A stretch of 51,675 bases of DNA. It comes from Rickettsiales bacterium. Lineage in GTDB: Bacteria > Pseudomonadota > Alphaproteobacteria > Rickettsiales > UBA1997. The position numbers were made by a program, and so were the translations under genes. How positions within the stretch are numbered: position 1 is the first letter of the stretch; every line of letters begins with the position of its first letter. The stretch lies in the NCBI GenBank assembly GCA_031287725.1, contig JAITSP010000052.1, positions 1 to 51,675 on the forward strand, given 5' to 3'. Under the pieces are notes generated by a model. It was not told the DNA's origin. It made no database searches and saw only the letters and a list, made by a program, of their open reading frames with translations. Shown here in pieces: positions 25,898 through 28,714 of the stretch.

Positions 25898-28714
25898 TTA
25901 TTTTACTTTCCGCCTTCTCTGAGACTTTTCTGCGCTGGTCATGGCTCCAACTTCTCTCAGAGCTTCCTTCAGCCTATTCTCGTAGCCGTAGAGGTGTCCC
26001 ATTCCATCTAGAGCCAGGAGCATTTTTCCCCCCTCAGGATCCTCCTCGCCATCTGGCTTCTCATCCTCTCCTGGTTTCTTCTCGAGCTTTTCTCTTTCCT
26101 TCTTCATTTTCGTAATTCTCATGGATAATTTATCCATATGCTCTTTACCGATGTACTCGTGAACTTTTTTGGAATCGATCTGGGATTTTTTTACCTCCTC
26201 CGAAATCAGTGCCTCCATCCTCTTTTTAAAAATACTAAGTAAATTGTTACCAGTCCACAGTTCATCCAACCTATCTCTAGTGTTCTGGTTAATTATCTGA
26301 TTAGCCACCAGGCGACCTCTGACCAGTCTAATCCCGCTATTGTCCGCAATCGCCTGAAGAGTCCACATAAGCTTGGTCTCGAACTCGCTGGGCAATTCAC
26401 CAGGATTCATCCCCATTTCCTCTCCAGAAGCATAGTGCCTGATTGTGCCATCCTTCACCTTCCGAAGGAAATTTGGGTGTCTAGCCACGGTCACAGTCGA
26501 AGCTGCTGCATAGTACCAGCAACTGCTCCACAGCTGAATACTTCTATTTATGTATCTACAATTTTTATCAACGCCACCAAAACCTACCCTGAGTCCAGTA
26601 CCCTTTAGCACTCCCACAGCTCTGCTGCTATCGGCAACATACAGCAGTGCTTCATTAATACTGTCTATATATGTACCTTCCCCAATGAGTTTCCCTATTC
26701 TCTTAAGATCAACCATGATGGCCGTAGCGTGGGGAATACCAATTGGGTGTGCAATTGTAACGAAAAAATCCTGGCCACAGGTTCCTATGTTGTTGCCACT
26801 AAAGCCAAAACACCCCAGAAAGGTTTTAAAGTCGCCGTATATCGATCGTCCTACTTCCCTCAGGCTGAAGATCGGGTCAGCTAATCTCACTCTCCTCAGC
26901 TCCTCTGGCTTGTGCAGAAGAAGAGTTCCCAGCACTATGAGATACTCCAGTTCTAGATATTCTCCTGGGGATAGCTCCTCCATACTCCCAGTTATCGCCT
27001 CTCCAAGAGTTTGTCCTAGGTATTTTTTAATGTACTCTGCTATTCCAGCCAGAGTTTTGACTCTTTCGTCTTCGGTCAAATTCTCGGTCACATCCTCCAG
27101 AGCCCCAGATGTCACTAGTTCCTCGAGATTGCTAACTCTGCTGTTCAGAAGCTCGTTAATTTTACCGTATTTCACCTGAATTAATCTCTCCAGTGTCCCG
27201 TTCTCCCCGTAGACATTGTATATTGTCTCTGATGACAGGGGTTTGAATTTGTCGCCGTAGTGATATTTAGTTTTACATAGTGGTCTTCCGGTTCCCTCCA
27301 GTTCTGGGGCGGAAGTATCTCCGTCGTCTCTCTGGGAAGTATTTGCTAGAATAACCATTTCCAGCGGAAAACCATTGCTGTAGAGATATTCCAATCGTTG
27401 GCTCCTGACCGATCCTTTCCCATCAGAGGAGCTATACTCTGTTCCTCTTCCATCTCTCAGATCATTTTTCCAGCCACCGTCGTATTTTCTTCCATCTGGA
27501 AATGTATGTACTCCCTTTCCATCCTTCTTACCATTCCTGTATTCTCCCTCATAGACATCTCCATCCGTATACCAGCATCTAAATTTTCCACTTATCTCAT
27601 CATCATCTTTGAGCAATTTTTCACCTATCTCATTAGCTCCGAGAATTTCGAAGATATTCCCCTCAGAATCTGTTTTATATTCTTTACTGGCTACCTCCTG
27701 ACCATTCCTCCAGAGAGTCCGTCCCAGAAGGGTTTTATACTTAGTCAACGTTCCCAGACTAATTATATCATTCTGCCAACAGCCTTTCGTAACATCTCCG
27801 TTGAAGAATGTGAGCTCTCCCCTCCCATTTCTTTTACCGTTTTTCCAGGAACCCACAAAAATATCCCTATTTGTATCCTCAAAAGTCCCCTCCCCCTCCA
27901 TCATGTCGTTTTTCCAATCACCACTGTATCTTTCTCCATTTGGAAATGTATGTACTCCCTTTCCGTTCCTCTGGCCATTGCTGAAACTGCCCTCGTATCT
28001 ACCCCCATCCAAAAACCAATACCTCAATTCTCCATTCATCCTGTTGCCTCTGAGAATTTCGAAGATATTCCCCTTGGAATCTATTTCATAACCTCCAATG
28101 TTCACCTCCTGGCCATTTTTCCAGAAACCCTGCCTCAAAATTCCACCACTAGCCAACGTTCCCGGACCGTTAGCCATATTATTTTGCCAATAGCAGTCCA
28201 GAACATCTCCGTTCAAGTAGTGATAGATTCCTTTCCCATCCATCATGTCGTTTTTCCAATCACCACTGTATCTTTCTCCATTTGGAAGTATAAATACTCC
28301 CTTCCCATCCATTTGGTCGTTCCTGAAGTCGCCTTCGTAGATGCCTTTATCGGCAAACGTGTATTTTCCCTTCCCGTGCTTTCTGCCATCTTGATAGAAG
28401 CCTTCATAGCTATAGATAAGGTTGCCTACCTTCACGGTCTCGGCGCCCCGTCCATCAAATTTGCAATCTTTGAAGTCGCCTTTGTAGACTAGGGCTCCCG
28501 AATCATATTCCAGCAGACCTTCACCCTCCAGCACAATATCATTCCATGGGCCATCCACTATGAAACTACCATTGTACTTAGCGTCGTTGCCATTGTGCGC
28601 GCATCTCAAGGTAACTTCCTCCGCTTCCAGCTGCTCCTCAGAGGGAATCATAAATTCTAATACCCTTACTTCCATCTTCGTCCTATAATTTCTTACCATG
28701 TCCAATGGTAGCAC
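25898..28714 (-). CDS. MORN-repeat protein with C-terminal putative clan CE (Ulp1/SENP-like) cysteine protease domain
   Basis: About ten MORN units (YEGDFRNDQMDGKGVFILPNGERYSGDWKNDMMDGKG...) at about 27364-28504. C-terminal pattern IAHPIGIPHATAIMVDLK...GTYIDS...(about 40 aa)...SIQLWSSCWYYA. GTG start; an alternative ATG start would place the 5' end at 28699. Confidence 0.75.
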   Translation of the reverse strand: MLPLDMVRNYRTKMEVRVLEFMIPSEEQLEAEEVTLRCAHNGNDAKYNGSFIVDGPWNDIVLEGEGLLEYDSGALVYKGDFKDCKFDGRGAETVKVGNLIYSYEGFYQDGRKHGKGKYTFADKGIYEGDFRNDQMDGKGVFILPNGERYSGDWKNDMMDGKGIYHYLNGDVLDCYWQNNMANGPGTLASGGILRQGFWKNGQEVNIGGYEIDSKGNIFEILRGNRMNGELRYWFLDGGRYEGSFSNGQRNGKGVHTFPNGERYSGDWKNDMMEGEGTFEDTNRDIFVGSWKNGKRNGRGELTFFNGDVTKGCWQNDIISLGTLTKYKTLLGRTLWRNGQEVASKEYKTDSEGNIFEILGANEIGEKLLKDDDEISGKFRCWYTDGDVYEGEYRNGKKDGKGVHTFPDGRKYDGGWKNDLRDGRGTEYSSSDGKGSVRSQRLEYLYSNGFPLEMVILANTSQRDDGDTSAPELEGTGRPLCKTKYHYGDKFKPLSSETIYNVYGENGTLERLIQVKYGKINELLNSRVSNLEELVTSGALEDVTENLTEDERVKTLAGIAEYIKKYLGQTLGEAITGSMEELSPGEYLELEYLIVLGTLLLHKPEELRRVRLADPIFSLREVGRSIYGDFKTFLGCFGFSGNNIGTCGQDFFVTIAHPIGIPHATAIMVDLKRIGKLIGEGTYIDSINEALLYVADSSRAVGVLKGTGLRVGFGGVDKNCRYINRSIQLWSSCWYYAAASTVTVARHPNFLRKVKDGTIRHYASGEEMGMNPGELPSEFETKLMWTLQAIADNSGIRLVRGRLVANQIINQNTRDRLDELWTGNNLLSIFKKRMEALISEEVKKSQIDSKKVHEYIGKEHMDKLSMRITKMKKEREKLEKKPGEDEKPDGEEDPEGGKMLLALDGMGHLYGYENRLKEALREVGAMTSAEKSQRRRKVK

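Follow-up and report, generated by a model that had tools for sequence, protein, structure and literature searches.

We analysed a contig from an assembly labelled Rickettsiales bacterium (JAITSP010000052.1), the whole of which (51,675 bp) is referred to here as the window, and focused on one gene whose product combines an array of MORN repeats with a conserved C-terminal domain resembling the cysteine enzymes of clan CE. The open reading frame (ORF) is located at 25898..28714 on the minus strand, encodes 938 amino acids (aa) from a GTG codon, and ends with the stop codon at 25898-25900. The database form of the protein, P0001, has 925 aa and begins at M14 (28673-28675). An AGGA motif was found 9 nt upstream of this codon, and M14 is likely the start of the protein. 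Residue numbers below follow the 938-aa ORF. Two frames are open on the opposite strand, at 27398-28492 (+, 364 aa) and 26550-27179 (+, 209 aa), which are most likely by-products of the purine-rich, repetitive coding strand and not genes.

The MORN-repeat region spans aa ~53-435 (27410..28558, minus strand) and contains ~10 repeats arranged in three blocks. Pfam assigned PF02493 (MORN) with an E-value of 8e-46 (151.6 bits vs a cut-off of 22.5) in 8 stretches, and a motif count gave 10 units following the canonical pattern YxGxWxxxxxxGxG, in agreement with the roughly ten repeats reported in an earlier note on this DNA. A profile built from a 58-sequence family alignment (profile A1) also matched MORN1 in the PDB. 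The spacer NGQEV..S(K/E)GNIFEIL occurs twice, at aa ~201 and ~338, indicating that the repeat region was duplicated internally. The repeats had been described in that note as a membrane- or lipid-targeting module, a function that is called into question by the title of a published article (PMC7725318).

The C-terminal 400 aa had zero Pfam matches even at E<=10. Most of this part belongs to a conserved domain of ~340 aa, modelled here as aa 505-870 (26105..27202, minus strand), which consists of an N-terminal strand/helix sub-region (505-640), a putative alpha/beta catalytic core at ~645-760, and, after it, a helical extension (775-870). The tail that follows (aa 871-938; 25901..26104, minus strand) is charged and helical, ends in ...KSQRRRKVK, and is poorly conserved across the family. 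An exhaustive phmmer (HMMER) scan over 1.84 billion cluster representatives recovered 65 homologues of the domain, including 46 at E<1e-10 and 15 at E<1e-30. A word-indexed homologue search missed them, whether the query was the single domain or a core profile of 28 sequences (E<=1), and the index is apparently blind to a family whose members it covers. The family was likewise unmatched in a single-domain search of genome contigs and in tblastn searches of plasmid and phage collections, and exact-product look-ups of the 938-aa and 925-aa forms, P0006, and P0034 gave no record.

Two peptide strings within this domain had been read in the earlier note as the His-Asp-Gln-Cys signature of clan CE (Ulp1/SENP-like), and both are present in the ORF: IAHPIGIPHATAIMVDLKRIGKLIGEGTYIDS at aa 654-685 (26660-26755) and RSIQLWSSCWYYA at aa 724-736 (26507-26545). 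The proposed His and Cys codons were located exactly, at 26729-26731 (His662, CAC) and 26519-26521 (Cys732, TGC) on the minus strand, and the Ulp1 sequence given there for comparison was correct, with residues 403-621 identical to PDB 1EUV (219/219 residues). In a MAFFT alignment of 61 domain copies, on which all conservation counts are based, H was found at position 662 in 60 copies, Q at Gln727 (26534..26536, minus strand) in 60, and C at position 732 in 59. Since the pattern is kept across 61 homologous copies, it goes beyond chance. The residue order thus held up, while the Asp had to be reassigned. The acid originally proposed, D684 in YIDS (26663-26665), is D in 24 copies and N in 20, with other residues or gaps in the rest, and lies in a length-variable insertion. 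The conserved acid is Asp695 (26630..26632, minus strand; D in 59 and N in 2 copies), in a motif that reads ADSSR here and [FY]DSSR family-wide.

With this reassignment, all four residues were present in 56 of the 61 copies, in the His, Asp, Gln, Cys order of clan CE. The Gln precedes the Cys by five residues, not six as in Ulp1, which had been noticed in the window protein and was found in 56 copies. The distance from His to Asp is 23-38 residues in the family (mode 33) compared with 17 in Ulp1, and it includes a family-specific insertion that separates the His strand from the Asp strand (aa 670-686; 26657..26707, minus strand) that is apparent from both the spacing and a helix in the structural model. 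Other conserved positions include Trp733 directly after the Cys (W in 56 copies), D669 (D in 48 and N in 12), and S696, S697, and R698, which are mostly conserved.

AlphaFold2 gave an unusable model from the single sequence, with a predicted local distance difference test (pLDDT) value of 40; when the 58-sequence alignment A1 was supplied, aa 505-870 were modelled with a pLDDT of 92.2 and a predicted template modelling score (pTM) of 0.92. In this model, strand 650-655 is followed by a short turn holding His662 and by strand 664-669, which begins two residues past the His. Helix 670-678 and a loop then form the family-specific insertion, and strand 691-694 comes next with Asp695 immediately after it, followed by two short strands and a helix. 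Gln727 is located on a loop, and Cys732 is the first residue of helix 732-745. The predicted order of secondary-structure elements is that expected for the adenain/Ulp1 fold, with strand pairing assumed. Upstream of the core, an isolated beta-bridge was modelled at aa ~609 within the invariant 'RvRF' motif, which was aligned by hhalign to the Ulp1 segment 'VAFNSFF', a segment that we take to be the first core strand. On that basis, the ~38 helical residues separating this bridge from strand 650-655 would lie at the position of variable region 2 (VR-2) of PMC4961225.

When the model was compared with PDB structures using Foldseek, clan-CE enzymes accounted for 9 of the 12 top hits and 11 of the 31 listed. 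They included Ulp2 (5lnb), SENP7 (3eay, probability 0.57, and 7r2e), and PopP2 (5w3x, 5w40, and 5w3y), as well as XopD (5jp3), SENP2 (5aek), and SENP5 (9gnn). Foldseek probabilities were 0.30-0.57 for Ulp2 and SENP7 and 0.08-0.16 for PopP2. Among the viral models of BFVD, the hit of top probability (0.41; rank 2 by E-value) was a putative SUMO protease. We take these hits to the predicted structure as supporting a CE fold in a qualitative sense and not in a statistical one.

Profile-profile comparison pointed in the same direction. The reference alignment for family C48 comprised Ulp1, SENP1, and SENP8 (PDB-verified) and three database proteins annotated with PF02902; Ulp1 used as the query in the word-indexed search had retrieved five proteins, too few for a deep C48 profile. 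Aligned with hhalign against these six sequences, the family core scored 24.8 (P 0.005), and His662, Asp695, and Gln727 fell in register with H514, D531, and Q574 of Ulp1 with posteriors of 0.6-0.9. The Cys was one position out of register because the Gln-to-Cys spacing is 5 instead of 6. The observed score exceeded all those obtained by shuffling columns (200 runs, 12.7 ± 2.5, maximum 22.3) or blocks (200 runs, 13.6 ± 2.6, maximum 23.1), and a reversed template scored 14.0. For scale, a comparison of C48 with C55, two accepted CE families, gave 30.7 when the profiles were equally thin. No signal was obtained against the single Ulp1 sequence, and an alignment of YopJ, AvrA, and PopP2 gave a score of 11.2, below its null of 12.5 ± 1.9, with the motifs still lining up. 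At the sequence level, we regard this as weak to moderate profile-profile support for CE membership, with the domain placed somewhat closer to Ulp/SENP than to YopJ.

Taken together, these analyses make it reasonably probable, in our view, that the gene encodes a MORN array fused to a very divergent clan-CE catalytic domain, and that its product is an exported cysteine hydrolase acting on proteins of a eukaryotic partner without restriction to Gly-Gly substrates. Several points weigh against this reading. No Foldseek hit to the PDB was found at E<=0.001; the best E-value was 0.12 (Ulp2, 5lnb), and the template modelling (TM) scores were 0.22-0.35 with probabilities of at most 0.57. Any fold similarity to clan CE is thus suggested by the identity of the top hits and not by their statistics. 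The low TM-scores are partly due to ~150 of the 366 query residues lying in helices added outside the core. For hhalign, the signal is modest, and the C48 profile behind it had only six sequences. The Pfam families of clan CE, PF02902 and PF03421 among them, matched 0 of 58 members at E<=0.01 and 0 of 28 isolated cores at E<=10. NCBIfam also left the domain unmatched. Sequence searches of the PDB found no CE match with the single sequence, with profile A1 (swamped by MORN hits), or with profile A2 (coiled-coil noise only). In the model, the adjacency of Cys, His, and Asp is deduced from their positions in the secondary structure only, and the sequence by itself does not discriminate a hydrolase from an acyltransferase. 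No signal peptide was visible in the 938-aa protein and no secretion system was found in the window. Finally, the "Rickettsiales" label may be loose and the lifestyle may not be intracellular, since a carboxyltransferase encoded in the window is 85-93% identical to gut metagenome-assembled genomes (MAGs) compared with ~69% for a MAG labelled Rickettsia typhi.

Because Pfam, NCBIfam, and PDB sequence models all fail to detect the domain, we interpret it from its sequence as a new family-level branch of clan CE that is not a member of C48 or C55. A papain-like (clan CA) or unrelated cysteine enzyme whose likeness to clan CE is coincidental was also considered. The conserved QxxGSCW (Q-x4-C-W) recalls the 'Q...G(S)CW' of papain and calpain, one family member had a weak Peptidase_C2 hit (E 0.073), and every CE hit of Foldseek was below significance. 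In papain-like enzymes of clan CA, the order is Gln, Cys, then His, then Asn/Asp downstream. The family has its invariant His 70 residues upstream of the Cys, which is the clan-CE order, and no conserved His or Asn was found downstream of Cys732 across the 61 copies; position 735 is H in only 32 of 61 and Y in the window protein. Moreover, hhalign puts the motifs in CE register, and no clan-CA protease appeared in the PDB or viral-model Foldseek lists. The papain reading was rejected for lack of a conserved His after Cys732, and we consider this whole class of explanation very improbable.

Host-associated bacteria repeatedly use clan-CE enzymes as weapons. Known members are deubiquitinases (DUBs), deSUMOylases, or acetyltransferases, and variable insertions together with a gatekeeper residue determine what they act on. 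By analogy with these enzymes, Cys732 at the N-terminus of its helix would act as the thiolate nucleophile, His662 as the general base, and Asp695 as the third member of the triad that orients the His, while Gln727 would contribute to the oxyanion hole. The ~10 N-terminal MORN repeats probably form a localisation or partner-binding module. The product would most likely be exported and act as a cysteine hydrolase, either a protease or an isopeptidase, on the proteins of a eukaryotic partner. The proposed family traits are a partly helical insertion of 6-21 residues between His and Asp, the Gln-to-Cys spacing of 5, and large helical additions flanking the core.

The residue following the catalytic His bears on the substrate. 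In almost all DUB classes and in proteases cleaving ubiquitin-like (Ubl) modifiers after Gly-Gly, including those of clan CE, a conserved aromatic residue directly follows the catalytic His and restricts the P2 position of the substrate to Gly, and proteases lacking it, such as RavZ, cut substrates with a larger P2 residue (Hermanns et al., PMC7391069). Position 663 was tallied in 59 of the 61 copies and was A in 32, S in 8, V in 7, G in 4, T in 3, I in 2, E in 2, and R in 1, with no aromatic residue in any of them. Because this residue is always small or non-aromatic, the activity is expected to extend beyond the Gly-Gly C-termini of ubiquitin, SUMO, and NEDD8. The host-directed deubiquitinase or deSUMOylase activity suggested in the earlier note is thus doubtful. 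A classical Gly-Gly-specific DUB, deSUMOylase, or deNEDDylase directed at the host, like ChlaDUB, SseL, XopD, RickCE, or OtDUB, would agree with the Ulp/SENP branch being the strongest structural and profile likeness, and the CE effectors found in intracellular bacteria are as a rule DUBs or ubiquitin-like proteases (ULPs) (PMC4961225). The large conserved region before the core could also mimic the VR-1 substrate-binding region that CE DUBs need (PMC7391069, PMC4961225). Against these stand the missing aromatic residue, given the rule of Gly at P2 (PMC7391069), and the lack of a match to PF02902, and we consider such an enzyme unlikely.

The same position leaves a different chemistry in play. 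In PDB alignments, the CE acetyltransferases AvrA and PopP2 have H-I and H-T at this site and thus likewise lack the aromatic residue, which weakens the case for a DUB or deSUMOylase. An acyl(acetyl)transferase of the YopJ/PopP2 type would use the Cys/His/acid triad to acylate Ser, Thr, or Lys residues of the host, with acyl-CoA as the donor. PopP2 contributed 6 of the 31 PDB hits of Foldseek, with alignments of 336-376 columns, a regulatory subdomain could be formed by the helical parts on either side of the core, and CE enzymes can be acetyltransferases or dual enzymes (PMC7391069). On the other hand, the probabilities of the PopP2 hits were lower than those of Ulp2 and SENP7, PF03421 was unmatched, and the hhalign score against the YopJ group stayed below its shuffle mean whereas that against C48 was 24.8. 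We therefore treat an acyltransferase as a serious rival to a thiol hydrolase, with a probability that we would nonetheless put as low.

The window encodes a second paralogue of the domain at 32076..33917 on the minus strand, a protein of 613 aa that is identical to P0060 and matches the family hidden Markov model at E 1e-69. It has a hydrophobic, signal-peptide-like N-terminus and a degenerate MORN-like stretch. The proposed catalytic residues are kept, as H392 (32742-32744), D429 (32631-32633), Q458 (32544-32546), and C465 (32523-32525), with a Gln-to-Cys spacing of 7 and Ile in place of Trp733. Across the family, the N-terminal modules were MORN repeats, a signal peptide, or none detected: MORN repeats were found in 30 of 58 members, and N-termini resembling Sec signal peptides in 6 of 51 complete N-termini, the second window copy among these. 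These sequence features therefore suggest an architecture of a variable targeting or export module joined to a constant domain.

The family appears to have multiplied in MAGs labelled "Rickettsiales", with copies in tandem and differing N-terminal modules. Among 19 looked-up homologues encoded outside the window, 12 were named "MAG: Rickettsiales bacterium", and 3 came from an assembly obtained by fluorescence-activated cell sorting (FACS) and labelled "Bacilli bacterium". The locus tags of the former belonged to the series LBB24, LBU15, LBP39, LBI70, and LBI29. Several members were found per single MAG, some of them adjacent, such as P0019 (825 aa) and P0045 (759 aa), which lie 74 bp apart at 1376-6206 (+) of contig L002. 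This contig came from the same sequencing run as the window and had a similar G+C content (48.8% vs 48.3%), and its tetranucleotide correlation with the window (0.94) equalled that between the window's own two halves. By these sequence measures, the window and the LBU15 MAG may be one genome, which would therefore hold at least nine paralogues of the family. P0015 (1348 aa) has two copies of the domain in one protein, in the first of which Asp695 is replaced by Asn, and single substitutions in the catalytic set occur in four further copies (P0005, P0017, P0048, and P0051). On sequence grounds, such copies are possible pseudo-enzymes.

The window represents an entire contig, and its nearest relatives are MAGs from lower-termite guts. 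Lower termites harbour cellulolytic gut flagellates. The carboxyltransferase of the window was 90-93% identical to those of the "Rickettsiales bacterium" MAGs Ncb351_bin7, Gsp477_bin186, and Ncb351_bin51, and 85-88% identical to those of several other uncultured MAGs, one of which was from the colon of a water deer. Ncb351 and Gsp477 are metagenomes of the lower termites Neotermes cubanus and Glyptotermes (PMC11707648). Six tandem paralogous genes at 34182-43831 (+), encoding proteins of 471, 513, 576, 482, 552, and 468 aa, each match the protein-kinase domain of Pfam over its C-terminal half (E 1e-12 to 9e-6) and are candidate eukaryote-like Ser/Thr kinases by sequence. A 213-aa ORF at 15766-16407 (+) has precomputed Pfam matches to DOT1 (histone H3K79 methyltransferase-like) and Methyltransf_31, and is a eukaryote-like enzyme. 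Because of these kinase-like genes, the DOT1-like methyltransferase, and the termite-gut relatives, the predicted gene repertoire of the contig suggests interaction with a eukaryote.

These observations also bear on whether the substrates could be bacterial, as would be the case for a protease with a processing role in the periplasm or outside the cell, or for a toxin aimed at other bacteria. Some paralogues have Sec-type signal peptides, including the one at 32076..33917, and the lineage is gut-associated and may not be intracellular, both of which would suit such a role. In contrast, the MORN repeats, the six kinases, and the DOT1-like enzyme nearby point to a eukaryotic partner, and no conserved adjacent small gene resembling an immunity gene was found, the neighbours being GlnA-like and RNase D-like. 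In addition, all bacterial CE enzymes named in PMC7391069 and PMC4961225 are described there as effectors or host-directed. Bacterial targets thus seem quite unlikely.

Other genes of the window were also inspected. The GlnA-like 364-aa ORF at 24691-25785 (+) is shorter than a typical GlnA, and its sole match is to the glutamine synthetase catalytic domain (PF00120, E 7e-24). A homologue of Mfd/TRCF at 13351-15471 (-) has only 706 aa with CarD_TRCF, helicase, and TRCF domains; Pfam finds nothing N-terminal to CarD_TRCF_RID, which begins at residue 35. Four giant ORFs had no Pfam match, located at 1018-9492 (+, 2824 aa), 9527-12346 (+, 939 aa), 20549-23689 (-, 1046 aa), and 29648-31768 (-, 706 aa). 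Some of these orphan ORFs coincide with a strong purine excess on the coding strand, where GC skew reaches ±0.37 and AT skew 0.36.

The clan and the chemistry proposed here are familiar, while the family is new and is marked by an unusual hairpin insertion, the lack of a gatekeeper, the MORN fusion, and the expansion of paralogues. The family would extend the known sequence space of clan CE because it is undetected by Pfam, NCBIfam, and PDB sequence searches, lacks the gatekeeper, carries its insertion outside VR-1 to VR-3, and is expanded in "Rickettsiales"-labelled MAGs. It would also provide a concrete test case for the rule that an enzyme without the gatekeeper is not Gly-Gly-specific. The contig is marked as effector-rich by its pair of CE-like genes, the six eukaryote-like kinases, the DOT1-like methyltransferase, and several orphan proteins of giant size, which hints at close contact of these gut alphaproteobacteria with eukaryotic cells. 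More tentatively, a wider scenario is conceivable, to which we give less than even weight: the protein may be the founding example of a CE family that lost the gatekeeper and acquired an insertion in the hairpin between His and Asp. Such a family may recognise something other than the Gly-Gly tail of a Ubl modifier, such as an ATG8-like tail, a modifier specific to flagellates, or an acyl donor. It may have multiplied into several paralogues in each genome that are targeted differently through MORN, signal-peptide, or other N-termini, and may serve termite-gut alphaproteobacteria as a principal means of manipulating their protist hosts.

Compared with known systems, the family is most similar to Ulp1 and the SENPs (C48, PF02902; 1EUV, 3EAY, 5LNB), which gave the best Foldseek hits and the sole hhalign signal above the null. 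The two share the order His, Asp, Gln, Cys and a '(I/V)(I/V)DLKK' turn past the His strand, and in the model of the family, as in these enzymes, the His is predicted at the start of a strand, the Asp where the following strand ends, and the Cys at the N-terminus of a helix. The family differs in being unmatched by PF02902, in its shorter Gln-to-Cys spacing, and in its longer His-to-Asp spacing, which results from the helical insertion. It also has no Trp after the His, Cys-Trp in place of Cys-Gly, and ~140 extra residues before the core and ~100 after it.

The YopJ/AvrA/PopP2 family (C55, PF03421) consists of acetyltransferases that are activated by inositol hexakisphosphate (IP6) and depend on acetyl-CoA for acetyl transfer. 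It shares with the new family the order His, acid, Gln, Cys, a larger size with helical flanks of the core, and, in AvrA and PopP2, the non-aromatic residue after the His. The family differs from it in giving no Pfam match and no hhalign score above the null, and the YopJ spacing from His to the acid is 19.

The bacterial CE effectors acting as DUBs or ULPs (XopD, ChlaDUB1/2, SseL/ElaD, RickCE, OtDUB, and LupA) resemble the family in combining a CE-type core with variable accessory or targeting regions in a host-associated bacterium, and XopD was among the Foldseek hits. Variable insertions around the core are typical of bacterial CE effectors (PMC4961225), but the insertion of the new family follows the His strand and is not located at VR-1, VR-2, or VR-3 as defined by Pruneda et al. 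2016 (PMC4961225). The known effectors keep the aromatic gatekeeper after the His (PMC7391069), whereas the new family is without it. Literature searches yielded no description of this family or of a MORN and CE fusion, consistent with the impression in the earlier note that the combination was new. MORN-repeat proteins (PF02493) such as MORN1, junctophilins, and radial-spoke proteins share the canonical repeat array with the window protein, but unlike in those proteins, the repeats here are attached to a predicted thiol-enzyme domain in a bacterium.

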